40,204 bases of DNA, taken from positions 1 through 40,204 of IMG/VR virus record IMGVR_UViG_3300008255_000228; one strand, 5' to 3'. The notes below the pieces were generated by a model that was not told the DNA's origin, did no database searches, and saw only the letters and a program-made list of their open reading frames with translations. The first letter of the stretch is position 1. Every line of letters starts with the position of its first letter. Positions 1,660-40,204 of this stretch are shown one piece after another. The translations under genes were made by a program, and so were the position numbers. Source of the stretch: a virus (Duplodnaviria; Caudoviricetes).

Positions 1660-4125
1660 ATGCAAATAAAGAATTTTCAGGAAACAATTGAATTAATTAA
1701 GCCATACCTAGGCAGCTATCTTGAGGAGAAGGGTATAAATGTCGATAACAAATTTAACTGTATCCACCCAAAGCACTCGGATTCGACCCCAAGTGCCAAT
1801 CTTGTTGGAGATAATAAAGAGCGCATCTATTGTCATGGCTGCGGGAGGCATTTTGATATTTTCGATGCTGTTGCCATTCTAGATAAAAAGCCAGCAGCAG
1901 GAATAGGCTGGGTTCAAGATACCTTAAAATGGTTGTGCGATAAATATAACGTAGAGTTTGTGTCTTCGAATATGTCAGAAGAAGATTCTTATAGACTAGA
2001 CGTTCACAGGGCATACCTTGCAGCTTTTGAAATTATCACAACAGATACACTTAAGTCGGCTAACCAAGCAATCACTGCGTCTCTAGAAGAAAGAGGGTGG
2101 TTGAAGGCTATCCCAGGACTCCAGGAATGGGGTATCGGGACGGTCTCTAATCTCTCGGACTTTCAAGAAGCACTAGAGGACCAAGGTTTCGACAAAGAGT
2201 TCTTAGAGGAAATTAATCTGCTGAAAGCAAACGTCTTTGCTCCAAATAACCTTATCTTTACTTGGCTTGATGAAAATCGTAGACCAGTTGGTTTTACGGC
2301 AAGAAGGGTGGATTATAAGAAGGGAGACGATGAAGGGAAGTATATAAACTTAAAAACCTCTGGTCTTAAATATAATCTATTTAACAAGAGTAAAAGATTG
2401 TTTGGATTAGACGAAGCTATCTCAGCAGAAAGACCTCTGTATATCTTCGAAGGACAGGCCGACGTTATTACTGCCCGAGTTCACGGAATGATGAATTGCG
2501 TAGCTCTTGCAGGCTCATCGTTCAGAGATGATCACGTAGCCCTACTAAGGTATCTTGGACTAACAGACATTGTTCTATGTCTAGATGGTGACAAAACAGG
2601 TCAAGAGAAAACTCAACAAATAGTTGAAGAAAAGCTGGCCGGACTTAAAGACATCAGAGTGCGCGTAATTACTATGCCTCCTGGTTATGACCCAGACTCA
2701 TTTATTAGAGACAATAGTATCTCAGAGTTCTATGGCCTAAAAGCTTGGACAGCCTTTGAGTGGAGATTGAACAAGTATCCAGACGACGCAGACGACGAAC
2801 AAATCTGCGAGCAGATGATCCCATTAATCCTCAATGAGCCGTCCAGAATCGCCCAGGAGACGATGGCGAAGGTTCTATCTAACCGTACCGGCTACTCCCT
2901 ACAGACGATTACAGCGCAAATAAACGCTATTATGGACGAACGATCTAACAAGAAGAATGAAGATAGGCAGCGAGTACTAGATAAAATCATTCACGAGATG
3001 AAGAAAAACCCCTCAGAAGCAGAGCTTATTCTAACGGAAGGTCAAGCTCTTCTTACCGAGGTTTCTAAAAAACACAATAGCGAGATTCTATCTAAAGAAC
3101 ATTTTCTAGGAAGATTAGATGAACAAAAAGTAACAGAAGAAACTGCCGCTATGATGGGTAAGTGGTTCAATCTTGGACACGAACTAAAGGAGCTTGAAGA
3201 TGCTCTTCGTGGAGATTGGAGTAATGGAGTTTGGTTTTGTTTAGGTGGTAAACCCAACCATGGAAAGACCGCCTTCTTAACAAAACTAGCTTATGAAATT
3301 GCTAAAAACAACGAAGATGCAATCGTTCTATACCATTCCATTGACGATACTGCTGAGCAAATAATACCTAGACTTGTTTGTGTTGCTGAAGGTTCACAAA
3401 GCATAACCATGAACATGGTACATCAACCAACATATTGGTCTAACACTGTTGGGATTCCAGATCTGATGGAAAAAAGAGCTTCTGGTTATTCATTAATTCG
3501 TGAGCTTGTGTTGCAGGGTCGTCTGATTGTGAAAGATATCGAACAAGGTTCTTCGCTTGTATTTGCTGAAGCTCTTATTTCACACTATCAGGAAAGATAT
3601 CCAGATCGACGTATTGTTTATATCTTAGATAACTTTCATAAACTTAATGACTTTGCAGGAGCAGACGAACGTGTAAGGTTTAAATCTCTCTCTCAGGCTG
3701 CCAAGGGTCTAGCTCTAAGAAAGAAGTGTTGCGTTATTACTACAGTTGAGTACACAAAACTATTGCCCGGTATCAAGCCAAATAACAACAATATTGCCGA
3801 AACTCAGCAAATTGAATACGACGCTAACCTTGTATTACATCTTTATAACGAAGTAGCAGATATTCCAGATAGGTTTACCGTCTGCAACAAGGCTACAAAC
3901 TGGAAAGGTGATCCAGTTTTCTATCCAAGACCAGAAATGATTATTGGCAAAAACAAAGTAACCGATATCAAGGAAACTTTTTTCCTGGACTTTTACCCTG
4001 GCTCATCTGACTATAAACATGTAAGCAGAGAGATTGTTCTACAAGATTCTAAAGCAATGGAGGACTTTAGGAAGGGCGGATATAACAATAAACCAAAAGA
4101 TGAAGTGGAGAGTATGTTCTCATGA
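1660..4125 (+). CDS. fused DNA primase (DnaG-type zinc finger + TOPRIM) and DnaB-like helicase
   Basis: CIHPKH..CHGC zinc finger, FEGQADV and LDGD TOPRIM motifs, Walker A GGKPNHGKT, ILDNFH, IEYDANLV. Confidence 0.9.
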   Translation: MQIKNFQETIELIKPYLGSYLEEKGINVDNKFNCIHPKHSDSTPSANLVGDNKERIYCHGCGRHFDIFDAVAILDKKPAAGIGWVQDTLKWLCDKYNVEFVSSNMSEEDSYRLDVHRAYLAAFEIITTDTLKSANQAITASLEERGWLKAIPGLQEWGIGTVSNLSDFQEALEDQGFDKEFLEEINLLKANVFAPNNLIFTWLDENRRPVGFTARRVDYKKGDDEGKYINLKTSGLKYNLFNKSKRLFGLDEAISAERPLYIFEGQADVITARVHGMMNCVALAGSSFRDDHVALLRYLGLTDIVLCLDGDKTGQEKTQQIVEEKLAGLKDIRVRVITMPPGYDPDSFIRDNSISEFYGLKAWTAFEWRLNKYPDDADDEQICEQMIPLILNEPSRIAQETMAKVLSNRTGYSLQTITAQINAIMDERSNKKNEDRQRVLDKIIHEMKKNPSEAELILTEGQALLTEVSKKHNSEILSKEHFLGRLDEQKVTEETAAMMGKWFNLGHELKELEDALRGDWSNGVWFCLGGKPNHGKTAFLTKLAYEIAKNNEDAIVLYHSIDDTAEQIIPRLVCVAEGSQSITMNMVHQPTYWSNTVGIPDLMEKRASGYSLIRELVLQGRLIVKDIEQGSSLVFAEALISHYQERYPDRRIVYILDNFHKLNDFAGADERVRFKSLSQAAKGLALRKKCCVITTVEYTKLLPGIKPNNNNIAETQQIEYDANLVLHLYNEVADIPDRFTVCNKATNWKGDPVFYPRPEMIIGKNKVTDIKETFFLDFYPGSSDYKHVSREIVLQDSKAMEDFRKGGYNNKPKDEVESMFS

Positions 4126-14496: not shown

Positions 14497-17142
14497 CTAT
14501 CCATTAAATCTAATCAATTCTGTTTTAGTAAAGCCGCAGGTTTGGACAGGAAGCTCTACTCTGTAGTCGTTACTTTCAAATACAATCTTTACTTTTGTGT
14601 CTCCACTAGACTCTTTTATTTTAGAAACAATCTCTAAAAATTTCTTCTCATCTTTTACTGTAATATACACTGTTTCTAATTTAGAAAGAACAGCTACCGG
14701 ATGCACTGTAACTCCCTTAACTACAACAGTTATTGCCGATCCAGTGTCTCCTCTAGTTACTTCTAGTGATGCGTTTATTACAATAGGGGTGTTAGGATCT
14801 AAAACATGCTTATACTTATTATATCCTGCTGAATAAATAACACCAGCGATGGACCCAGTCTTATCCTCTAGCTGCATGTATGCCATCTTCTGTTTCTTTT
14901 GCTTAGTAGTGTGTTCTTTTAGAACACTTGGCACTGCAATAAGTTTAATAGAAGACTTGTTTTCTAGCTCTCCTACATTAACTGCATCAATAATATCCTC
15001 AACAGTCCACGTAGTGTCTACTGCAATACCATCTAGAGGATGTCCTGTAACAAAATAACCTAACAACTCTTTTTCTTGTCTAAGTATCTCGTCATCACTA
15101 AGCTCTACGTTCTTTCTAATTTCTGGCTCAAGCAATATCTCTGGACAAACTGGAGCCTTTTTCTTTCCTGGTTTCTTCTTTCCTTGCAGTCTTAGATTTT
15201 TCTTAACAGTAAGAGTTAGATTCTCCCACACTTCAATCTCTTTTAATCTTTCTTCGTACTCCTTGCTCTTTGCTAAATAGGTTTCTAATTTAGCTTCATA
15301 AGACTTAAGGTCCTTCTTGTACTGAAGAACGTCATCAACATACAACAGAAGAGAACTTCTTGTATAACCAAATTCATCGAAAGCACCACTTAAAATAAGG
15401 GAATCAAGTTTTTTCTTGTTAATCTTACTCGTATTAACGCGGTCGATAAAATCCTTAGGCGAAGTAAATGGTCCGTTCTTTTCTCTTTCTTGAATAATTT
15501 CTTCTACAGGTTTTCCTAGGTTTTTGATAGCTGATAGCCCAAACCTAATATTACCCTTCTTTGCGATATTGAATTGAAACATTGATTCGTTAATAGACGG
15601 ACCTAAAATCTCTATACCTATGGCTTTACAATAGGAGATATATTTAATTACCTTGCTAACTTCATCTGAATCACTAATCAAACAAGCGGTCATAAACTCA
15701 AGAGGATAGTGAGTCTTGAGATAGGCCATTTGGTATGAAATGTAACCATAACAGGCAGCATGGGCGCGATTGAAGCCATATGCAGCAAAGGCTTTGATGT
15801 CTTCCCAAATTTTATGAGCATCTTGAATATCTATATTGTTTTTAGCCATACCGGCTTTAAATTTCTGCTCCTGCGCAGCCATCTCTTTTTCTTTTTTCTT
15901 GCCTACCGCTCTTCTCATCAAGTCGGCTTCGCCCATTGTGTAACCAGCTAGCTGCTTACAGATTTCTAAAATCTGTTCCTGATAAATAAGCATTCCATCT
16001 GTATCACCAAGAATTGGTTCTAATTCTGGAACTGCAAAGATTGGACTAGCTTCGCCTGCACGTACTTTTAAGTAGTGTTGAAGCATGTCAGAAGATAGGG
16101 GACCGGGACGGTAAACGGCGACAAGAAGAGCTAGGTCATCAAGCTTATTTGGCTTGATTTTTATAAGCAAGTCCTTCATTCCTGAAGAACCTTCTAGTTG
16201 AAAAACGCCATCAACATCACCTTCTTGGAGCTTTCTATACACCTCGTAATCATCTACCGGAATTTGAAGGGGTTCTATGTCGATGTTGTGGCGTTGTTTG
16301 ATAATGTCTACACATCTTTGAATGGTAGTTAGGGCGCGTAAGCCAAGGAAGTCAAACTTAATTAAGCCAACCTTTTCTACTGTGTTCATTTCGAACTGTG
16401 TAGTAGGAGCACCATCCTTACCCAGGATCAAAGGTAGGGTTCTTGTGATCTTATCCTTACTAATTACGATTCCACTAGCATGAGTACCAAAAGATCTAAT
16501 TCGATCTTCCATCTTCTCTGCCCAAATTAGAATCTCTTGTTCTTGAGGAACAATACCTGCTCGAATGTTTTTTAGCTCTGGAACCTTCTCGTAACACGTC
16601 TGAAGCGATTGAGACTTACCTTCAATAGGATCCAAGGTAAGCTTAGCAAGCTTGTCTCCTAGTGCATAAGGAAGTCCTAGCGCTCTAGTGACATCTCTAA
16701 TTGACGCTTTAGATTTCAAACTACCAAAGGTACCTATATGAGCTACCTTATCTCGTCCATACTTTTGTTCTACGTATTCAATTACTTCATTTCTTCGTAA
16801 TTCGCAGAAGTCCATATCAATGTCGGGCATTGAGACTCGGTCTGGATTGAGGAATCGTTCAAAGATGAGTTTATATTTAATTGGGTCCAAGTGTGTAATT
16901 TCGAGTGCAAATGCAACAAGAGATCCAGCAGCCGAACCGCGACCTGGCCCAACAGGTATCTTGTTACGAAGTGCCCAAGTGAGAATATCTGAGACAACAA
17001 GGAAATAACCTGCGAATCCCATAGTGTTGATAATGCTGATTTCATATTTTAACCGCTCCTGATACTCTACAAGATGAGCTACACCTCTTTTCTTGAGGCC
17101 CTTCTCAGATCTAAATTGAAAATAAAGCTGTAGGTCGGTCAT
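14497..17142 (-). CDS. dnaE: DNA polymerase III alpha (DnaE), catalytic part without PHP domain
   Basis: GPGRGSAAGS, FERFLNPDRVSMPDIDMDF, HASG, KFDFLGL, YGFNRAHA, C-terminal OB fold; start re-called at ATG 17142. Confidence 0.95.
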   Translation of the reverse strand: MTDLQLYFQFRSEKGLKKRGVAHLVEYQERLKYEISIINTMGFAGYFLVVSDILTWALRNKIPVGPGRGSAAGSLVAFALEITHLDPIKYKLIFERFLNPDRVSMPDIDMDFCELRRNEVIEYVEQKYGRDKVAHIGTFGSLKSKASIRDVTRALGLPYALGDKLAKLTLDPIEGKSQSLQTCYEKVPELKNIRAGIVPQEQEILIWAEKMEDRIRSFGTHASGIVISKDKITRTLPLILGKDGAPTTQFEMNTVEKVGLIKFDFLGLRALTTIQRCVDIIKQRHNIDIEPLQIPVDDYEVYRKLQEGDVDGVFQLEGSSGMKDLLIKIKPNKLDDLALLVAVYRPGPLSSDMLQHYLKVRAGEASPIFAVPELEPILGDTDGMLIYQEQILEICKQLAGYTMGEADLMRRAVGKKKEKEMAAQEQKFKAGMAKNNIDIQDAHKIWEDIKAFAAYGFNRAHAACYGYISYQMAYLKTHYPLEFMTACLISDSDEVSKVIKYISYCKAIGIEILGPSINESMFQFNIAKKGNIRFGLSAIKNLGKPVEEIIQEREKNGPFTSPKDFIDRVNTSKINKKKLDSLILSGAFDEFGYTRSSLLLYVDDVLQYKKDLKSYEAKLETYLAKSKEYEERLKEIEVWENLTLTVKKNLRLQGKKKPGKKKAPVCPEILLEPEIRKNVELSDDEILRQEKELLGYFVTGHPLDGIAVDTTWTVEDIIDAVNVGELENKSSIKLIAVPSVLKEHTTKQKKQKMAYMQLEDKTGSIAGVIYSAGYNKYKHVLDPNTPIVINASLEVTRGDTGSAITVVVKGVTVHPVAVLSKLETVYITVKDEKKFLEIVSKIKESSGDTKVKIVFESNDYRVELPVQTCGFTKTELIRFNG

Positions 17143-17143
17143 A

Positions 17144-17368
17144 CTATTCCGTCTCAACCTCGAAAACATAACCCTTTTCATATCCCGAATAAGCTTCTTT
17201 AACTACAATTGATTTGCAACAAGGGCATTCTTCATTCACCTGTTTGTATGACATGATTGCATACGTAGGACCTTTTTCTTTATGAGGAGGGTATTGACTC
17301 CAGTAGGTAATCTCGAATCCAGGATTCTCTCCTATGTAGTCTCTCGTATACTTTTGAAATTCAGTCAT
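17144..17368 (-). CDS. hypothetical protein
   Basis: GAGG RBS; CPCC motif. Confidence 0.65.
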   Translation of the reverse strand: MTEFQKYTRDYIGENPGFEITYWSQYPPHKEKGPTYAIMSYKQVNEECPCCKSIVVKEAYSGYEKGYVFEVETE

Positions 17369-17531
17369 AATTTACCTCTTTGGTGCTGCGCATCCACGAC
17401 CGCTACCTCTTTCTGATAGAGGTTTTTCTTTATCCCTTACTCTTTTTAGGTCAATCTGATAACTGCTAGTTTTTCTTTTGATAACTAAGATCTGTCAACA
17501 GGAATTTTTCCTTAAGACTATCCCGTAAATC

Positions 17532-17837
17532 CTATTCCTGATGAATCTTGTTTTTTGCTTCAACAGAATCAAACCTAGTTCTTCTTAAGTGAAGAGAATA
17601 GCCTGTAGTTTTCTTAACAAGAACTAAACATTCTTGTTTATTAACGTCTGTTTTTACCCAGATACCAATAGATTCATTCATTTCCATGTTTCCTGGATTA
17701 AGATAGTCTCCTATTTCTGTTTCAAGACTAGACAAGTATTCTTTTTTATCGTCTAAAGACTTTTGCATAGCACGAATGTCGGATTGTATTTTTTGCCACT
17801 CTTTAACCTTATCTGTTAATTCCTTGTTTGCAGTCAT
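17532..17837 (-). CDS. hypothetical protein with N-terminal coiled coil
   Basis: AAGGAG RBS. Confidence 0.7.
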   Translation of the reverse strand: MTANKELTDKVKEWQKIQSDIRAMQKSLDDKKEYLSSLETEIGDYLNPGNMEMNESIGIWVKTDVNKQECLVLVKKTTGYSLHLRRTRFDSVEAKNKIHQE

Positions 17838-17893
17838 GCACTACTCCTTGCCAACAGAAACAAAAGATTCGATTCTTCCTTTTCTCTATTAAG

Positions 17894-18067
17894 TTATGGT
17901 TGCCTTGTATCTTCTAATTCTTCTCCGGGATCAGGACCCATAATCTTATCTATTTTAGCAAGCATTGTGATTCTTTCTTCTTTCTTGTAGACATAAGCTT
18001 TGACAATCTTGTCTTGCTGAATAGAAAGATACCAGCCGTTTTGTGTTTCATAGATTTTAAATATCAT
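17894..18067 (-). CDS. 57-aa hypothetical protein (not in the ORF track)
   Basis: MIFKIYETQNGWYLSIQQDK...; ATGA overlap with the upstream stop. Confidence 0.65.
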   Translation of the reverse strand: MIFKIYETQNGWYLSIQQDKIVKAYVYKKEERITMLAKIDKIMGPDPGEELEDTRQP

Positions 18068-18804
18068 CGTTCAAAAACCTTATCAGAAAAACATTTTCGA
18101 CAACTCTGGCAAGCGTCTTTAGTTTCTAGCTTGCCCGCGTCAACAGGACAACACCTAAGAAGATCTTCAAAAGGAAGATCTTTCTTTTTCTGCTGCATGT
18201 TAAAAATAATTTGAGCACCAAGGGTATCTTCTCTACTGTCTGTTCTCAAGAAACTGAAGTAAATTCTTGGGTGCCTTGCTTCAAGTACCTGACTCTTCTT
18301 AATCTTACTCTGAGGATCGCTGTCAAGAGAGAACATAATATAGAGATTAGTGGCGTTTCTTGTTAACGCTAACGCTTCCTTAACCTTCTTAGTTACAACC
18401 CATAGAACAACATCTTCATGTTGAGTGACTAGACGATTGATAACTTCAATTGCCTTTGGAAACAAATCCCCTACTCCATTCCACCTTAAGAATGTCATCT
18501 TCTTAGAAACATATTGCTTATAGATTCTGTCTACAATGACCTGGGTTGGAGTTTTAAGAAAGTACTCATATAAACGTAAATTTTTAGCAAGAGAATTGTT
18601 CCATGTAATAGGTCTATTAAGTCTAGTCCCATAACAAACCTTAGAACAAATCTTGGTAGGTTGACATGTTTTAGAAATAGGAAAATTCAAACTCCAGCCT
18701 GTTTTAGTATTAAAGCTACAGATGTTTTCCTTAGGCTCTAGTGCTTTTAGTCCTTGAATCTCGACATCTTTAGTTTTCTGTATTAATTTTTGTACAGCAA
18801 TCAT
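18064..18804 (-). CDS. GP88-like Cys-rich phage protein (probable Fe-S, radical-SAM-related)
   Basis: C..CSKVCY, RWNGVGD, CCP..CQSCRKC. Confidence 0.6.
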   Translation of the reverse strand: MIAVQKLIQKTKDVEIQGLKALEPKENICSFNTKTGWSLNFPISKTCQPTKICSKVCYGTRLNRPITWNNSLAKNLRLYEYFLKTPTQVIVDRIYKQYVSKKMTFLRWNGVGDLFPKAIEVINRLVTQHEDVVLWVVTKKVKEALALTRNATNLYIMFSLDSDPQSKIKKSQVLEARHPRIYFSFLRTDSREDTLGAQIIFNMQQKKKDLPFEDLLRCCPVDAGKLETKDACQSCRKCFSDKVFER

Positions 18805-19118
18805 TAGTGATCAATACTTTCAAGCACATAAAATACTTCAAGAGCTTCTTGAAATGTATTTAATGTGACTTTTCCAAAAACATCCGTTTTTTTAAGATTC
18901 TCATATATCATAATAGTTCCAACTACATACTGATTATTAGAAATCTTTTTGATACCATTATTTTCTCCAAGAAACATTCCAAGGGTATCTACAACACTTT
19001 CTATATGTTGTTCAAATGAAATACCGCCCTCAGCGTACTGAAAAGCTTTCTTAAGTCTATTTTGTATCTTAATCTTAAGGAACTCCGCAGCTGTCTTGAT
19101 GTCTGGCATTAATTCCAT
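18804..19118 (-). CDS. hypothetical protein
   Basis: Start re-called at ATG 19118 after AAGGAG. Confidence 0.65.
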   Translation of the reverse strand: MELMPDIKTAAEFLKIKIQNRLKKAFQYAEGGISFEQHIESVVDTLGMFLGENNGIKKISNNQYVVGTIMIYENLKKTDVFGKVTLNTFQEALEVFYVLESIDH

Positions 19119-20090
19119 AACTTGTCTCCTTCCACTGTTTAAATTCTTCATAGTCATCTGTTTCTGTAATTGGAAAAACAGGTTCCTGATATTCGCCTAA
19201 CTTTAAAGTAACATTACATTTATTTGCTATATCTATGGTGTTATGAAAAGAAGATTCAGCCCCAATTTTCTTAGCTCTTCTTTCCATCTCTTCATGTCCT
19301 GCTACATAAAAGTGAGGACCATAAAGGAAATCAGAATTCTCTCTGTATTTTTGAATAGGAATGCTCATTTGCATTGCCATAATTAGCTCATGGAGTTCGT
19401 GGTCCTTGAGAGTAAGATAGTGGGCGTCGGCAGTAATAACTAAAGGAATAGACATTTTCTGTGCTGTTGTAATGACCCATGAATTATAGGTTGATTGAAA
19501 TTTATCAGCACTGTCCCATCCTTGAACTTCTAAATAGAAATCATCACCAAATATCTTGGTCATTCTTTCTATCATTTTAATCGCTTTGCCTTCATCATCA
19601 GTACAAGCGCGCGCTACTCCATTCTCATCCTTGTTGAAATTCAATTGCTTTGCAGTAATGCCACCAAGACATGCAGTTGTGGCCACAATATGACCAGAAA
19701 GATAATCAAGATTCTCAATAGAGATACGTGGCTTATAGTAAAAGTTGGTTAAGGAAGCATTGCTTACTGTTTCCATGAGACGCACATAGCCCTCATTATC
19801 CTTAGCTAGGAGCACCATATGCATATTGTCTCTAATCTTATCTTCGTTACTTAGTCCATCTGGACTCTCTGTTATGTAAGCTTCAACACCAAGAATAGGT
19901 TTTATTCCTGCCTTATTGCACTCTTCATAGAATTCAATAACCCCTGCCATCCATCCATGATCAGTAATTGCACAAGCCTGCATACCATCTGCTACTAAAT
20001 TCTTCACCAAATCCGGAATAAGAATAGCTCCATCTAGAAGGGAATACTGAGTATCCTTCAGTGAAGGTGGAGATGCGTAAAAGACTCCAC
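19075..20090 (-). CDS. dnaE: DnaE N-terminal PHP domain as a separate gene, interrupted by an 8-nt insertion at about 20053-20060
   Basis: AGGAGG-GTG-ESFTHLHLH* in one frame; TQYSLLDGA..ITDHG..KPILGVEAY..H.VLLAK..TADAHY..NT.DIANKC in another. Confidence 0.9.
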
Positions 20091-20149
20091 CTTCTTATTT
20101 CCTCCTAGACTTAAACTCCCATTGTTTGATGTGTTTTCCATATCTATTA

Positions 20150-20501: not shown

Positions 20502-21092
20502 CTAATCGTCTATTTCTCCCACAATATGTCTAAGAATACCAACACTAGTAGCTATATCATGAATAGCTGAATGAGGTTGGTCATTAGATATACCAACTTC
20601 GATACACATGTCTTTAAGTCTTAAGGACTCTGGTAGTCTCTTGTTTTGCGTGATGTACCAAGAGGTATAAAAACTAGGAAGATCAAGAATGTGGTAATCA
20701 AATGGCCATTTCTTACCAACCTTGTCGTAAGCTTGGTGCAAAAAAGCATTGTCAAATTGAACATTAGTGCCAAAAAGAACTATGTCCTTTGGATCTACAT
20801 CAGAAAGATTTGTTTCAATAAACCTGTCTAGTTTTACAATTACTTTATTAAGGGTTGGCGCATCCTTTAAATCGTTTTCTTCGATTTCATGAATAGAGTA
20901 TGCGCTATAACCATTCTCTCCCTTACTATACATTCTGTCTAGAAAATCTGGTTTAACTAGAGATTCCATTGCGGCTATTCTCTTCAGATTCCTATCTAAA
21001 AGAATAACTCCTATCTGAACTATCTCATCCTTCGTTGGATCCAATCCCGTCGTCTCCAAGTCCAGAGCTAAGATCGCTTTCATCTGTGTCAT
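20502..21092 (-). CDS. DEDDh 3'-5' exonuclease (DnaQ/epsilon-like)
   Basis: DLETTG, NVQFD, HSAIHD motifs. Confidence 0.88.
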
Positions 21093-22590
21093 CGTCTTCT
21101 GGTCCTTTCTTAGTACTATATTGTGGTAACTCTAATATCTTCTTTTTTAACTCTTCTTTGAGAGCATTGTTCTGAGAAAGATATTCTATAAAATTAGGTT
21201 CTCCTTGAATCTTTTCATCTCCAAGAACGAACCAGGCTCCTGATTTCTCTACAAAACCATGAGCAGTACTCAAATCAACTATCTCCTGAATAGAATCAAT
21301 ACCCTTACCAAATTTGATATTGAACAGCACCTCTCTAAACGGCCATCCAACTTTATTTTTAACAACCTTGACTTTAGTTTGTACACCAACCTTGTCTTCT
21401 CCTTCTTTCAAGGTTCCGATCCTTCTGATATCTAGACGTTGGCTTGCATAAAACTTAAGGGCATTTCCGCCGCTGGTCGTTTCGGGACTGCCGAACATGA
21501 CACCAATCTTCATACGGATCTGATTAATAAAAATAACAAGGGTATTAGTTTTCTCTGTAATTGAAGTAATTTTTCTAAGTGCTTGACTCATTAAGCGAGC
21601 ATGAAGACCCACATGAGAATCTCCCATATCTCCCTCAAGTTCAGCTCTTGGAGTAAGGGCTGCCACTGAGTCAAGAACAATAACTGAGAAAGCTTTTGTT
21701 CTAATAAATGTATCTAGAACCTGAAGAGCTTCTTCAGCGCAATCTGGTTGAGAAATTATCAAACCATTTGTTTCTTCTGGTGCAATAACCCCTAAGGCTT
21801 TTGCGTAATTCATGTCAAGAGCATGTTCTACGTCGATAAAACCACATGTTAATCCGCGTTTTTGAGCTTCAGCAATAACGTGAAGAGCCATCGTTGTCTT
21901 CCCGGAATTGTGAACTATAAAACGTTCAGCTACATAGTTGTTGAAGGGAGATTCCATTCTAATGTCATAGGTATGTTTTTGACCTACGCTATAAATTTTT
22001 TCTACTCTAGTAGGTGTAGCGATAGTGTCGTTTTGGATCATTATTTGATCTCCTTCTTGGAGATCAGAAAGCGGAACATATCCTTCGCCAGTAAAAAACT
22101 TATGATCTGCCGATGCTTGGATAGTTTCACCAGTTGTTTCTAATTGGAAACAGTCTTTTACACCTGTATCCATCACCGCCATAATCTTATTGTGAATAAT
22201 ACAACCCCTACTATCAACAGAAAAAGCATAAAATTCAGAATCTATTGATGCGTAATTAAAATGGTAAAACAATTTTTCAATTGAAGTAAATTCATTAACG
22301 ATCCGTTTGCCATCTTTGCTTCTAATTTCATATTCAATGAAAGTATTTGCCGCCAAGCACGATTCTGGGCCATAAATTTCAACAATTCTACCCCTAGCGA
22401 AACCACCATTCATTGCCCAGTCTAACTTAATTGACTGAGATGAAATAAAATCGATATCAGGAAAATCAGCAGAACTTCTAATTACAGTGCCAACACCAAA
22501 CTGTTTAGTAAGACTATCAACAGCTAGTTGAATAGCTTTCTCGGCATCTGCCTTACCTGGATCAAAAGCCCCTGTCTTTTTCTTAGCCAT
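21025..22590 (-). CDS. recA: RecA recombinase with a mini-intein
   Basis: [11 protein letters not shown]|[47 protein letters not shown]. Confidence 0.96.
21907..22359 (-). mobile_element. 151-aa mini-intein in the RecA Walker A motif
   Basis: Starts CLAANT, has SADHKF block B, ends TYDI..IVHN before +1 Ser; no endonuclease domain. Confidence 0.92.
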
Positions 22591-23948: not shown

Positions 23949-26900
23949 TTACTTTTTACTTACTTGTAATATTTCACACGCTCCACCATCACAAAAACGT
24001 TCAATTTGTTCATTTTCAGTTACAGTTAGATCAAGAGCAGTCAGATTAGCAACTGCTTCAAGATATGTTGCTTGATCTATTTCTTGATAAGGAGCATGTT
24101 TATATCCATGTTTATGCGGAAGAAACGAAACACCCTTAAGTCTTGTTTCATAGTGCTCTAGCGCATGTTTGATCTGACTTTCTTCTTCTGGATTAAACGA
24201 AACTGTAATGCTTACTTGATTGTCAGCCCAATAAGCTTGATACATCGCAGCGTTTTCTAACTGCTCCCACAAGGAAACATCCTTTTTCCCTCTCTCAAAA
24301 AACTCAGCTTGAATCGGAAAATAAACAGCAACAGTATTTGGTTCATCGGGTTCTAAGTTATAAGTCTTGTATCCAGCTTTTTGAAGTGGTTTTAAATAAT
24401 CTGAATCAGCAGCAAATCTGATAACGTTAAAATACCATCGTGAGTGGTCATAGTGTATACCTGGAGTAACGCCTGGAAGTTTCGCAACTGTCCCTGAAGG
24501 CTTAACACTTGTTAACTTAATTGACTCTGGCACACACAACCAGCCAGAATAAATCCTATCTAGCTCTCTAAGATACTTGTATCCATTATCGCACCATTGT
24601 CTAATCTCTCCCTTGCTATGTCTATTAAATGCCTGAATGATACCTGATTGAGAAATACCAATACGTCGATTTCTCATCATTACTGCATTGGTTCTCTCGT
24701 CGTGAGTTGGAAGAAGAGTTACAGTCTTTGCATACATATATGCAAATTTAAGTGTTCTTTTATAGTCTTCGAACGAATCAATTCTAGAAGGAAATGTTTC
24801 TACAAGAGTACACATTTCTCTATCTTCAAGACTTTGTTCCACACATTGGAAGGTAAATATTCCAGTATGTTCTTTTGTTTCTTCATTGATGTTTGTTACA
24901 ATTCCAACAGTGTGAAAATCATCTACTGTTAGGTTGAAAACATCTTCTGTTTTTTCCAGACACTCAACAGAAACAACACGGTGGTTAAAATTATTAGCAA
25001 GTTCTTTTAAATGAGAGAAACTCGTAAGAGTATATTGGTTTTTTGAAGTGGATTTTGGTCTAAGTCTAAATGGAACTTTAGAAACTCGACAACTTTCTTC
25101 CCATTCTTTTTTCGTTGGTTCTCTGTTATAGGTGTTTTTGAAATTGAGATAGATAGAAATTTGATCATCAAGTGTCTTTTTTTGTCGTGTCTTAAAAGAC
25201 TTGTTAAGCCCTTCTTTTCTCGTTTCTATTCCCGATGGTTTACTATTAGAGCAGGAGAGAGAACAAAAACAACGATCTCTTTTTCCCCATGGAACAATAA
25301 ATTCAACAGAACAAGTTTCGCAAACCTTTCTTACAAAAAGGCGTCCCTCGATCCATACTGTTTCAAGATCAGTTATTCTGTCTTGTTCTAGATAGTATTC
25401 TTTGTCCCATTGTTTTTTCTGATCAGCCATCCTGCCAGAAAGAGATATACGTTCTTCTTCTGTGTGACTAGCTTTTAGTTTTTCAATAAATTTTGAGTCG
25501 GATGTTCTTTCTAGAGTTGTGTCTCCAATTTTTCTTTTTGTTTCTTTTGAATGTTTTTTCCCGAACATTCCATTGTTTTCACCAAAACGATCACAACTTG
25601 AATGAAGAGAAGAATGGTCTCTAAATGTCATTATCTCTAAGTTATCAGGGGCATTATTAAGAGAATTGTAGTCTTTGTGATGAACAACAATACCCCCTTT
25701 AATCCATCCATTTTGCTTAGCCTCTTGATAGAGAGAACTCCATTCTTTCTTGTGAAAGAACTTAGATATTAGTCTGTGTTCAAATATCTTATCTTTTTGA
25801 GAATCTAAAGTATCGCAATAAACCCTAAAGTATTCATTGCTCTTCTTTGTTAACCTCTCTAGTTTCTTTGTAAATCTAGGTAGGCTATCATTTTGTTGTA
25901 AGTTTTTTGCTTCTACTTTTGTTCCGTTACGCAATCTCATTTTGTGATCAGGCGTTACACAGAAAAAACTACCGTCATCTAGTGTTACTTTTACAAGAGA
26001 AGCATCTTTCCGAGTAAGTCTTGGGTTTCTGCCCCACTTTATTTCAACCTTTCCGTTGTCTGGATTAAGAGAATAGACAGGAACATCTTTTCCTTCTTCC
26101 GCTAGTTGCCTAATAGAGACGGCATTTCTTCCGTCCGCTGTGGCAATAAGGGTGTCTCCCCTAAAACAAGGGTTTGCGCCTGCAACTTTTCTATCTTTCC
26201 AGTCAGGAGGATCTATCATGCGGGAATAGGCGCGGGCGTTCTCTAACCACTCATATCCCGGTTCACCATTCTTAGCTGTTTTACTAGCAGCATTTGTATA
26301 GTCCATCCCTACAGCAGCAAAAAGAGAATTGTTACTAGCCCACCTATGGCTATTTAATTCTTCTTGATATAATTCTGGATTCTTTAGATCTAGAAAGTCT
26401 GGATCATCTAACTGGCCGAAAAGAATTTCAGCTGAATTATGGACCACTAAACCATTACCAACAACAAACTCATGTGCGTTTTCTACCTCAAGATCATATG
26501 TTTCTATATTTCTACCCGGAAGATCGGTTTTCAATACTTCAACAGGAAATTGAGCTAATGTTTCATTAAAAACTAATTGAACTAATTGATCCTGAAGGGT
26601 CAATTCGTCCATTCTTTTAAAAGTAAATTCGTCTGGAGATAAAAATACTTTAACTTTATGGTTTGGAGTTGCCTCAAGCTCTCCTAGCTGTGTAAGAATT
26701 CGAGTTGTCTGTTGAACTCCCTGCTTAAATACTTGAGAAACCTGATCCCATCCATAAGAAGTTTGAACAAAGTCTCCCTTTTTAACAGAGCTAATTGGAA
26801 TCAAACCTTTTTTAGTATGAACAAGTGTATCTTCTGGTAAACATCGCCTCACGTTACCAGAAACAACACACCTTCCAATGAAATTGAAAATATCAACTAT

Positions 26901-27695
26901 AGCAGTAGAGGTTATTGTTTCTCCAATTAGAGGATCTAAGGTTTTTTTTACGTTCTCTATAAGTTCCAAGAGAGGGGCAGGGCCGGATGCAACACCGCCA
27001 AAACTTTTAATTAGAGCGCCAGCAGGTCGAACCAAACTAGCGTCTATCGAAGCAGGCATAGTGTCTATTCCAACATAGGCATCTAGTACCCTTCTTAATA
27101 TCCCTACCCATCCCTCTCTGGTATCCTCTATAACATGTATATCTAGAGATGTTCTAGGGGTTTTAATAGTAACTGTACCAGCACCTCTAGTGTCACTACC
27201 AACACCTACCCCTAGCATAGACATATCCATAAGAAAACAAAATGGGTCAGAGAAGGATGTTTTCAGTTCAGCGGTAGAAGTGAAGGCGCAATTGTTCAAA
27301 GGCGCGCTTCCTTTTGCTTCGACATGCTCGGTGCCCATCATCCAGAGTCCTCTTCCCGGAGGAAGAAACTTCATATCCCACATTTGTTGATACATTTCTT
27401 GAGCAGACTTTTGAGCTTTTCTAGAATTCCAAGGCAGTCTTAAAGACTTGCAATGAGCTTCTTGAATTCTATAAGTACCTTCAGTAACACGAACCAAGGT
27501 TAACCAGAACTCTTCACTGCCATCCAGGCCAGCCTCTTGTGCGAGTCTTTGGTAACGTTTATGAATACCAGAAATGCTTCTTGCATAAGTTCTTTTATAA
27601 ACTATATAACCTATAGGTCCCCAAGAAGGTTGAAGGCCCATAAATTGTTTAATAAATTTATCGTTTAACCTAAAGGTACTAGCACTTAAGTCCAT
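23949..27695 (-). CDS. nrdJ: class II (AdoCbl-dependent) ribonucleotide reductase with two inteins; about 671 aa after splicing
   Basis: YKRTYAR, PPGRGLW, NNCAF, VVSGNVRR|SAEI, GANP|CVEQ, TSVKPSGT, C-terminal FCDGGAC. Confidence 0.93.
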   Translation of the reverse strand: MDLSASTFRLNDKFIKQFMGLQPSWGPIGYIVYKRTYARSISGIHKRYQRLAQEAGLDGSEEFWLTLVRVTEGTYRIQEAHCKSLRLPWNSRKAQKSAQEMYQQMWDMKFLPPGRGLWMMGTEHVEAKGSAPLNNCAFTSTAELKTSFSDPFCFLMDMSMLGVGVGSDTRGAGTVTIKTPRTSLDIHVIEDTREGWVGILRRVLDAYVGIDTMPASIDASLVRPAGALIKSFGGVASGPAPLLELIENVKKTLDPLIGETITSTAIVDIFNFIGRCVVSGNVRRCLPEDTLVHTKKGLIPISSVKKGDFVQTSYGWDQVSQVFKQGVQQTTRILTQLGELEATPNHKVKVFLSPDEFTFKRMDELTLQDQLVQLVFNETLAQFPVEVLKTDLPGRNIETYDLEVENAHEFVVGNGLVVHNSAEILFGQLDDPDFLDLKNPELYQEELNSHRWASNNSLFAAVGMDYTNAASKTAKNGEPGYEWLENARAYSRMIDPPDWKDRKVAGANPCFRGDTLIATADGRNAVSIRQLAEEGKDVPVYSLNPDNGKVEIKWGRNPRLTRKDASLVKVTLDDGSFFCVTPDHKMRLRNGTKVEAKNLQQNDSLPRFTKKLERLTKKSNEYFRVYCDTLDSQKDKIFEHRLISKFFHKKEWSSLYQEAKQNGWIKGGIVVHHKDYNSLNNAPDNLEIMTFRDHSSLHSSCDRFGENNGMFGKKHSKETKRKIGDTTLERTSDSKFIEKLKASHTEEERISLSGRMADQKKQWDKEYYLEQDRITDLETVWIEGRLFVRKVCETCSVEFIVPWGKRDRCFCSLSCSNSKPSGIETRKEGLNKSFKTRQKKTLDDQISIYLNFKNTYNREPTKKEWEESCRVSKVPFRLRPKSTSKNQYTLTSFSHLKELANNFNHRVVSVECLEKTEDVFNLTVDDFHTVGIVTNINEETKEHTGIFTFQCVEQSLEDREMCTLVETFPSRIDSFEDYKRTLKFAYMYAKTVTLLPTHDERTNAVMMRNRRIGISQSGIIQAFNRHSKGEIRQWCDNGYKYLRELDRIYSGWLCVPESIKLTSVKPSGTVAKLPGVTPGIHYDHSRWYFNVIRFAADSDYLKPLQKAGYKTYNLEPDEPNTVAVYFPIQAEFFERGKKDVSLWEQLENAAMYQAYWADNQVSITVSFNPEEESQIKHALEHYETRLKGVSFLPHKHGYKHAPYQEIDQATYLEAVANLTALDLTVTENEQIERFCDGGACEILQVSKK
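24846..26168 (-). mobile_element. 441-aa intein with HNH homing endonuclease in the NrdJ active site
   Basis: CFRGDT..VTPDHK; HHKDYNSLNN..NL HNH; NUMOD3-like GKKHSKETKRKI; CETC..FCSLSC; ends DVFNLTV..TFQ before +1 Cys. Confidence 0.9.
26436..26843 (-). mobile_element. 136-aa mini-intein in NrdJ
   Basis: CLPEDT..ATPNHK..TYDLEV..VVHN before +1 Ser. Confidence 0.92.
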
Positions 27696-38616: not shown

Positions 38617-38957
38617 AACCTAGTATTAATTTTATGAAGTAGTGTTTCGTGTTTAATTGCCACCCAACCTCCTGTGTTTTTATCTAGTTTCTCTTGCATC
38701 CAAGAAGGTAACTCTAAGAAAATTTCACTAGTGTTTCTATTGAACTTTTTAGTAAGCAAAGACTTTGCTATGTTTACATTGATACAGCTACCATCTCTTT
38801 TAGTAGTTGAAACTTTATGAACAAACACTTTGTAAACATCTTTACCTATTTGCTCTACAACAATACCCTTACATACTAGAGGCCACGATTGCCCTCTAAC
38901 GTTCCCAAACAAGAACACCTCTGTTCCTTGTTTAAGCCCTTTGCTTCTTTTATTCAT
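38595..38957 (-). CDS. hypothetical basic protein overlapping the RT stop (SH3/KOW-like pattern)
   Basis: LKQGTEV..KGIVVE..YKVFV; AGGAG RBS inside the RT 3' end. Confidence 0.65.
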   Translation of the reverse strand: MNKRSKGLKQGTEVFLFGNVRGQSWPLVCKGIVVEQIGKDVYKVFVHKVSTTKRDGSCINVNIAKSLLTKKFNRNTSEIFLELPSWMQEKLDKNTGGWVAIKHETLLHKINTRLCSKQLS

Positions 38958-39912
38958 CAGTGCTCCTTTGCTGATTTTTATCCAATAATTTATTTACATA
39001 AGATAGCATCTTAAACGATTGTGTCTTGTTTATTTCACTTAAATAATTAAGGATACCAAGAATACGACAAGATTCTTGGTTAGATCCTTGAATTTCATTT
39101 AACTTTAAAGGAACTCTTCCCAAGGAATTCCAAGTCATTGTTAAGTCCCTATGGATAATTGCCCTGTACTTTTGAATCTTTTTTCTCTCTACTTTAAGTA
39201 CTTTTTTTTCTCCGTTTAAAAGCACACCTGTAACCGTTTGTTTGTTTCCATTGTTAAACGAAAGGGCTGTTTTCTTATCATTAACTAAGAATCCATGCTT
39301 CCTAATTATTTTCCAAATTTTTAACTGTATTCCCTGAGGATATAAACCATTGCTAGAAATTGTTATGTCGTCAATATATCTAGTGTAAGTACATTCGCTT
39401 CCTACTAAATTTATAATCTCTTTATCCATCTCTATTCCACAATAAGAGGCAATATGAGAAGAGGTAGGGGAGCCCATGGGGACTACCCCCGTCTGAGGAT
39501 GTACAAGAAAAGATACAATTTTATTGAGAGAATGCTTTAGTATTTCAAGATTTGGATAGTCTATGCGCATCTGTATAATAGCTTTTTTAGCCATAGATCG
39601 CGTAACCATATTGAAAAAATCTTTTAAATCTAAGGTTAAAACCCAACGAGCATTTTGATGAAATGCTGCATTGTATATATGATTACGATCTTCTCCTCCT
39701 AGTCCATATAACCAGGAGGGATAAGAGAGCTTCTTGAAAAGTTCTTCTAGAAGATAACGCTGAACTTTCTTGGTAGGATTGTTTGGCACAGACAGTTTTC
39801 TCACTCCACCAGAGGGTTTAGGAATGTTAATAAATCTGTACCTTGGCTTACAGTTAAATATATTTTGATTCATTTCTTTATCTGTTTTAATTTTGAAGGC
39901 TATGGATTGCAA
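38950..39912 (-). CDS. retron-type reverse transcriptase
   Basis: IPKPSGGVRKL, NAAFH (region X), DLKDFF, PMGSPTS, YTRYIDD, VTG (region Y); start is TTG 39912 or ATG 39873. Confidence 0.92.
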   Translation of the reverse strand: MQSIAFKIKTDKEMNQNIFNCKPRYRFINIPKPSGGVRKLSVPNNPTKKVQRYLLEELFKKLSYPSWLYGLGGEDRNHIYNAAFHQNARWVLTLDLKDFFNMVTRSMAKKAIIQMRIDYPNLEILKHSLNKIVSFLVHPQTGVVPMGSPTSSHIASYCGIEMDKEIINLVGSECTYTRYIDDITISSNGLYPQGIQLKIWKIIRKHGFLVNDKKTALSFNNGNKQTVTGVLLNGEKKVLKVERKKIQKYRAIIHRDLTMTWNSLGRVPLKLNEIQGSNQESCRILGILNYLSEINKTQSFKMLSYVNKLLDKNQQRSTDE

Positions 39913-39938
39913 CTACCTAAAAAAACAACCAATTAGGA

Positions 39939-40204
39939 CAACTGTTAACATTTACAAGTTAACCAATTGCTGTTACTCATCTCATCTACTTCAAGTGTAT
40001 GCCTGTTATAAGTTTATAAAATATAATTTAAGGCTGTGATACCTGAAAGACTAAATCAAATCTTAGTCTTATACCTAGGAGGTCAGGTAATCGTTAGATA
40101 TTAGTCTAACTTAGAAGATCAAAAATTCTGTAAAAATCTTATAGTGTCTTGTTTATTTATTTATTGCTAAGATTTTTTGAAGAATTTTCAATCTTCTACT
40201 GAAA
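39939..40204 (-). ncRNA. candidate RT-associated structured ncRNA (msr/msd-like), probably cut off by the window end
   Basis: ORF-free region upstream of the RT with at least five inverted repeats, including an 87-nt hairpin at 40112-40198. Confidence 0.6.

Follow-up and report, generated by a model that had tools for sequence, protein, structure and literature searches.

Printed cases of natural translational bypassing comprise, in the accessible portions of the literature, T4 gene 60 and its homologues, the terminase of one Streptomyces phage, and the mitochondria of Magnusiomyces. The known kin of T4 gene 60 are given there as MobA-cassette homologues in myovirus Topo2L genes (10.1101/2022.08.31.505936; 10.1101/2024.12.09.627546). 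The large terminase gene of the Streptomyces phage phiHau3 carries two 10-nt gaps, and a 10-nt gap with a stop replacing the rare UUA was bypassed in E. coli, as determined by mass spectrometry (PMC10732093). Regarding the process itself, the T4 gene 60 papers describe P-site re-pairing without A-site-like monitoring, which leaves latitude (10.1101/2022.08.31.505936), and propose that forward movement is driven by pairing of the mRNA exiting the ribosome (10.1101/2024.12.09.627546). A literature search, confined for the most part to openly accessible papers, returned no report of bypassing in a phage dnaE gene.

The window, i.e., the whole stretch of 40,204 nt that was analysed, is an entire linear virus record with a completeness of ~21%. 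The record occurs in an aquifer metagenome run (groundwater phage), and the source is a bacteriophage. Its genes encode RecA and a class II ribonucleotide reductase, both with inteins, a primase-helicase, ClpP, PhoH, an amidase, and a reverse transcriptase; no tRNA genes were found in the window. The primase (Toprim) and DnaB-like helicase are fused in one 821-aa protein (1660-4125, +). The reverse transcriptase gene (38950-39912, -; Pfam RVT_1) encodes NAxxH, YIDD, and VTG motifs that we take to be of the retron type and has a structured, ORF-free leader of 290 nt (39913-40204); together they are likely a retron carried by the phage and truncated where the contig ends. Among cultured phages no close relative was found: the best INPHARED match to the window PHP protein reached 38%, and the best match to the PHP protein of the jumbo-type clade considered below (54%) was an uncultured record with an intact gene.

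DnaE is split in the window into a free-standing PHP gene (19075-20090, -) and an 894-aa polymerase core (14497-17181, -), which comprises NTPase/palm, finger, HhH, and OB regions in an intact frame. A gp88-like gene and small ORFs lie between the two (14497-20090, -), and a core motif was located downstream of the PHP gene in 7 of the 13 loci checked, the window's own contig among them. The 119 non-self homologues listed for the window PHP were PHP-only proteins of 243-349 aa, in a search bounded to 178-569 aa in which some homologues were possibly clipped by contig ends. A single PHP gene was found in the ~21% complete record.

At the 5′ end of this gene, on the minus strand, a Shine-Dalgarno-like AGGAGG (20101..20106) is situated 10 nt 5′ of a likely GTG start (20090-20088), with an anti-SD duplex of -10.2 kcal/mol versus -7.7 kcal/mol at an alternative in-frame ATG at 20141, which would lengthen ORF1 by 17 codons. 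ORF1 (20061..20090) has 10 codons, the GTG and those for ESFTHLHLH, whose C-terminal part is the HxH metal-ligand motif, and ends with the putative take-off codon CAC (20061..20063), the last His of HxH. It is followed by a coding gap of 8 nt, TGAAGGAT (20053..20060), in which TGA comes first (20060-20058) and the putative landing triplet GAT (20053..20055) is the first triplet past the stop to match CAC at two positions. TGA is the rarest stop in the contig, terminating 4 of 28 long ORFs. ORF2 (19075..20052) continues from ACT at 20052 for 325 codons and constitutes the remainder of the free-standing DnaE PHP domain. Gap ends were fixed by the resumption of the conserved frame, independently of codon match, and removal of 8 nt gives HLHLH/TQYSLLDG in three neighbouring registers. 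The sequence-only reading of this DNA had reported an 8-nt stop-containing insertion in the DnaE PHP motif, whose removal restores the DnaE N-terminus and which severs HxH from an otherwise intact PHP domain of more than 300 aa. This was borne out: coordinates and letters were confirmed, with the same bases in a Logan contig, HLHLH/TQYSLLDG was recovered, and the downstream frame of 325 open codons matched PF02811. The reverse transcriptase of the window was considered as a repair template and rejected, the junction sharing no word longer than 10 nt with the rest of the window.

All the PHP fold motifs are present, HxH in ORF1 and TDHG, GxE, and DAH in ORF2, which keeps the later metal-ligand positions, covers positions 6-162 of 164 of the Pfam PF02811 (PHP) profile, and gives an AlphaFold model with a TM of 0.75 to DnaE PHP structures. 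ORF2 alone models confidently (pLDDT 92; the alignment behind the model is of intact relatives), which speaks for ORF1 and ORF2 being made separately, with a 10-residue HxH peptide complementing a re-initiated ORF2 or with ORF2 working without its first strand. A genuine stop, and a DnaE that these phages already divide between genes, would also suit separate products. The resume point, however, has no start codon, the earliest possible one lying 14 codons on, at 20010, even though the intervening codons agree with intact relatives at an average of 12 of 15 positions (best 15; 43 proteins); we consider two separate products highly improbable.

The gap itself is real. A Logan contig of run X1 (5,580 nt, depth 9.2) crosses the gap site with zero differences, a support that consists of an assembled contig from what may be the window's source sample; run X2 gives no coverage there. 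Elsewhere the X1 contig departs from the window at two single bases, 22016 and 22920, through population variation or differences in assembly. A truncated-protein cluster has three members (JGI/IMG, ENA, and Logan), every one without the HxH start. In favour of an assembly error or a dead allele are the depth of ~9 in assembled contigs and a second stop in one relative, L101. Against it stand the identical bases in the second assembly, the Pfam-recognised genes of the window, in which no break was seen apart from the dnaE gap, and a stem, stop, and landing pattern common to dozens of diverged genes with constrained downstream frames. Error or recent mutation, both left open by the sequence-only reading, is very unlikely, since the gap recurs in relatives.

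That reading had also proposed to look for inserts in related phages, and gaps were found at or just after HxH in many of them. For the window's clade, 160 loci were fetched with an alignment of 54 PHP proteins, and besides the window's contig four were broken, with gaps of 7, 8, and 9 nt after His in L101, L103, and L113, respectively, and of 12 nt at a Tyr codon in L111. Three protein records (P0009, P0082, and P0117) have off-frame N-termini at the same codon, suggesting breaks there too. The start was mostly intact in the nearest listed relatives of the window (55-60% identity). Two pattern scans returned 12 matches, namely 3 true gaps in larger phages, 2 intact dnaE types in 3 loci, and 6 chance matches. 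A scan of the jumbo clade with a pattern ending at the last His yielded 94 loci and, after 12 distinct non-dnaE matches had been dropped, 58 distinct dnaE 5′ ends, 29 intact and 29 gapped. The gapped ones comprised 21 short His-site gaps (5-8 nt), two 6-nt Leu-stop-Leu hops, and six hairpin gaps (40-47 nt) after an Asp codon, so gap lengths over both clades were 5-12 or 40-47 nt. The hops, in L220 (3045-3051) and L241, are directly 5′ of the conserved Asp-Gly. One gene, L255 (3027-3110, +), has two gaps, one of 8 nt after His and one of 46 nt after a Leu codon, the latter with a stop and a 17-bp hairpin that holds the take-off codon on its 5′ side. Record G004, with a 41-nt gap, bears a tRNA with a CUA anticodon and a tmRNA gene (C1:103191-103264 and 50266-50616).

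A further pattern scan gave 25 matches, 8 of them jumbo-clade gap loci with no new gap sequence and 17 of them non-dnaE. A scan for TGA-led 8-nt gaps gave 0 matches, and viral contigs scanned with a single protein showed no relative. Two pattern scans of GTDB genome contigs gave 0 matches, so a prokaryotic chromosomal case was not found with those patterns. In jumbo-clade protein records, 37 of 120 were without an in-frame HxH start, not all of which need be gaps. Gap counts overstate independence because the loci are related. On a PHP tree of 195 sequences with 32 gap carriers, the gap state changed at least 20 times, compared with a mean of 30 and a minimum of 25 changes for shuffled labels; the state is thus more clustered than shuffled. 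Near-identical PHP genes differ in gap presence or gap type. The tree left out L101, whose frame is short, and L258, L227, L009, and L150 were removed as misaligned; L258, L227, and L009 have intein-like insertions inside the PHP domain, past the Cys of the G-x-E region.

A stem accompanies these gaps. In the window, a perfect 10-bp stem (-17.2 kcal/mol) pairs 20094-20085 with 20072-20063 on the minus strand; its 5′ arm (20085..20094) contains the likely GTG start, and its 3′ arm (20063..20072) corresponds to Leu-His-Leu codons, the last base being the first base of the take-off codon. Compared with shuffles this stem is moderate on its own (z -1.5; 16 of 200 fold equally well), and it is the richest in G+C of three perfect stems of at least 10 bp in the window; its weight comes from the comparison with relatives. 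The CCTTC-ACT-GAAGG hairpin described in the sequence-only reading does exist, but it is weak (-4.4 kcal/mol) and competes with the 10-bp stem, which had been missed. A helix of at least 9 bp (9-15) ending at the take-off codon was present in all 20 distinct His-gap 5′ regions versus none of 123 intact ones. Among 14 jumbo-clade sequences, all 168 stem cells were paired and 4 of 12 pairs had changed on both sides, a covariation that kinship among the sequences can inflate; 0 of 500 shuffles paired as highly, and slid controls were 38-57% paired. No consensus structure was detected in 19 intact jumbo clade-mates. Where the gap is at Asp, Tyr, or Leu, the end of the stem shifts along with it, and perfect stems were also listed in records G001-G004.

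We consider it probable that the window gap is a programmed translational bypass, as had been suggested from the letters, although our grounds are other ones: recurrence, the stop and landing pattern, and the 5′ stem. With His-tRNA on CAC and TGA occupying the A site, the ribosome would stall, move 8 bases along the mRNA, pair again on GAT, and continue translation from ACT; the predicted product is a single PHP protein of 335 aa. The initiating ribosome would open the stem, which may re-zip as its 3′ arm leaves the ribosome, thereby loosening the pairing at take-off and giving the ribosome a forward push, the mechanism suggested for T4 gene 60; one mismatch at landing would be tolerated by the P site. 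The 10 codons that precede take-off here are probably too few for a T4-like nascent-peptide signal, which counts against this reading. A single process of this kind, in which the peptidyl-tRNA leaves the mRNA at a stop and pairs again a little further on, could cover every gap length and frame. Stop-codon reassignment was rejected: all three stops terminate ORFs here, and most gaps shift the frame.

The stop and landing pattern was assessed in 20 distinct short gaps drawn from 24 loci. A stop was the first triplet in all 20, and in 19 the last triplet shared at least two positions with the take-off codon (all three in 2), whereas random fills did so in a mean of 4.7-5.8 and a maximum of 14 cases (20,000 draws per pool). 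The landing triplet was the first such matching triplet in 17 of the 20, against a random mean of 2.5-2.8 and a maximum of 11. Mismatches fell on position 1 in 12 gaps, position 2 in 3, position 3 in 2, and two positions in L254. The earlier objection that GAT is a poor match to CAC is accurate as to the letters, but it is not a flaw for landing, since 12 of the 20 short gaps mismatch the take-off codon at position 1 only. Downstream, the frame was open for 332-845 codons in the 14 gaps checked, and the 30 codons past the gap were constrained (pS 0.54-0.95 and pN 0.03-0.35 in 13 pairs of gap-bearing genes). Counting against bypassing are the few exact landings; the L254 landing, where GTC has one match and a better triplet, out of frame, starts one base before it; a competing near or exact match 2 nt past the landing site in several gaps, including the window's; the long gaps after Asp, where in 5 of 6 a sense codon rather than a stop is next to take-off (TTA follows take-off in the long gap of L195); and a second in-frame stop 42 codons downstream in L101, a low-coverage contig.

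The main rival, which we regard as unlikely, is that the gap is excised from the mRNA, as a micro-intron removed by a nuclease and ligase guided by the stem, or is skipped in transcription. The stem end lies at a fixed place relative to the gap, as excision would have it, and the freedom of position 1 in the last triplet would follow from a cut after base 1 of the take-off codon, which keeps the residue in 15 of 20 gaps; a cut after base 3 fits all gaps. Yet excision does not require an in-frame stop first, which all 20 short gaps have; the gaps (5-47 nt) share neither end sequence nor length; and the mismatches at positions 1, 2, or 3, depending on the gap, are not explained by a single cutting register, the base-1 cut failing in 5 of 20. 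Gaps of 5-12 nt would be too short for known ribozymes, and those of 5-8 nt also for known bulge-helix-bulge introns.

Ordinary recoding of each gap (-1 here, adding LKD/WKD, and +1 or readthrough elsewhere) would add a small number of residues behind HxH. The frame does open with a -1 shift at 20059-20058, gaps of 6, 9, 12, and 42 nt are in frame, and L181, next to a nuclease gene, has lost 1 nt in a T run. Recoding is nonetheless distinctly unlikely, given that three mechanisms would be required for one site sharing one stem, that the window site has no slippery run, and that the near-matching last triplet is left unexplained. Two or three extra residues between HxH and LDG were present in no intact protein examined, and one extra residue in five. 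The -1 frameshift adding LKD that had been put forward earlier could not serve gaps of 5, 6, 7, 9, 12, and 40-47 nt alike.

With bypassing as the preferred reading, the origin of the gaps may be connected with a nuclease. In the jumbo clade, a gene that we take to be HNH-like from its motif was located within 1.6 kb upstream of dnaE in 11 of 25 gap loci compared with 3 of 27 intact ones (Fisher p 0.012; loci with at least 1 kb of flank, no kin correction, and a profile derived from eight of the counted loci), and a Pfam search of these proteins returned no HNH name. In L194 and L251, this gene sits between dnaE and a conserved 535-aa gene that adjoins dnaE directly in the intact L226 and L234, and its end overlaps the 5′ arm of the stem. 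An HNH-like gene also lies upstream of the Leu-stop-Leu hop in L220, and remnants occur in L214, L241 (broken), and L264. The spread of the gaps was probably tied to that of a free-standing HNH-like endonuclease whose gene entered directly 5′ of dnaE; the gap would spoil the cutting site of the endonuclease in dnaE and outlast the decayed nuclease. In the published account of MobA, the associated gap similarly blocks self-nicking and outlasts the nuclease (10.1101/2022.08.31.505936).

No endonuclease was found beside the gap of the window or 5′ of the gene in L101 and L111, so the nuclease link is limited to the jumbo clade. In the window, a RecA mini-intein is located 1 kb upstream of the gap (RecA region, 21025-22590), and the ribonucleotide reductase gene (23949-27695, -) contains two inteins, one of which has an HNH domain; the gap in the window's clade could have been mobilised by an intein nuclease. 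In L198 and L227, an HNH-like gene lies upstream and the dnaE 5′ end is ungapped, which could reflect other protective changes or an inactive nuclease. In L181 (3990-4010), one base is lost in a T run just past HxH, beside the HNH-like gene; this may be an error or a form of the same protection based on -1 slippage.

Gaps in dnaE imply that many phage dnaE genes are miscalled. Twenty short and several long natural gaps at one site, with a covarying 5′ stem and relaxed landing, would mean that the signals required for bypassing are many fewer than gene 60 leads one to expect, and a 60-nt cassette would bring the force behind the ribosome's slide within reach of testing. We regard as evenly poised the broader proposition that a portable minimal signal, made of a stop and a stem between the gene's own start and its earliest conserved codons, carries ribosomes across 5-47 nt with only two bases re-paired; that homing endonucleases thereby break their own target in a replicative polymerase gene; that the signal was acquired or replaced repeatedly in two or more distant DnaE lineages; and that polymerase output may depend on release-factor or tRNA supply. 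If it holds, no natural system would be simpler than these genes for testing the model in which bypassing is driven by mRNA pairing behind the ribosome.

When compared to other systems, the dnaE gaps share features with each. Like phiHau3, they are short gaps in a conserved motif region; in phiHau3, however, the rare sense codon UUA leads the gap and a developmental role was proposed (PMC10732093), while true stops lead the short dnaE gaps (TGA rather than UUA in the window) and a covarying 5′ stem is present. The byps of Magnusiomyces mitochondria are likewise mobile, patchy inserts (10.1101/2022.08.31.505936), and the 40-47 nt dnaE variants resemble them in their GC-rich hairpin, A-rich 3′ part, and, in 5 of 6, position after a sense codon. 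In contrast to byps, dnaE gaps occur in bacterial phage, and the window gap is 8 nt long, stop-led, and without an internal GC hairpin. Classical stop-hopping, in which 9 nt are read as one residue (10.1101/2022.08.31.505936), resembles the Leu-stop-Leu hops of L220 and L241; the known cases described there are low-level, whereas the dnaE hops break up a conserved gene and are accompanied by a stem.

Relative to the T4 gene 60 type, the host gene is the dnaE PHP gene rather than Topo2L with a MobA cassette, the gap is 8 nt (5-12 nt being common) versus ~50 nt, and 10-14 codons precede take-off in dnaE (10 in the window, or 27 from the upstream ATG). The take-off and landing codons reported by Manning and Atkins are matched or wobble-matched, whereas CAC faces GAT here and landing is usually mismatched; these authors also describe the 5′ stem as not conserved between clades, while it is the conserved element in dnaE gaps. 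The mini-SD ~6 nt 5′ of landing has no room in an 8-nt gap, its position being occupied by His codons. The take-off hairpin with the take-off codon on its 5′ side is a weak 5-bp one in the window, strong gap hairpins occurring only in the long variants, and a nuclease is absent beside the window's gap. The window element consequently falls outside the T4 gene 60-type class by host gene, matched landing, mini-SD, and cassette. Common to both are a gap within a conserved metal-binding region of a phage DNA-metabolism gene, a stop right after take-off (TGA after CAC here, and 20/20 short gaps), a stem-loop 5′ of take-off, a free-standing, often lost endonuclease (here in the jumbo clade), and a hairpin held in the gap of long dnaE variants. 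To judge from its layout, the long gap of L255 is the closest likeness to T4 gene 60. The gap element is real and selected and, by analogy, probably works in the manner of T4 gene 60 bypassing.
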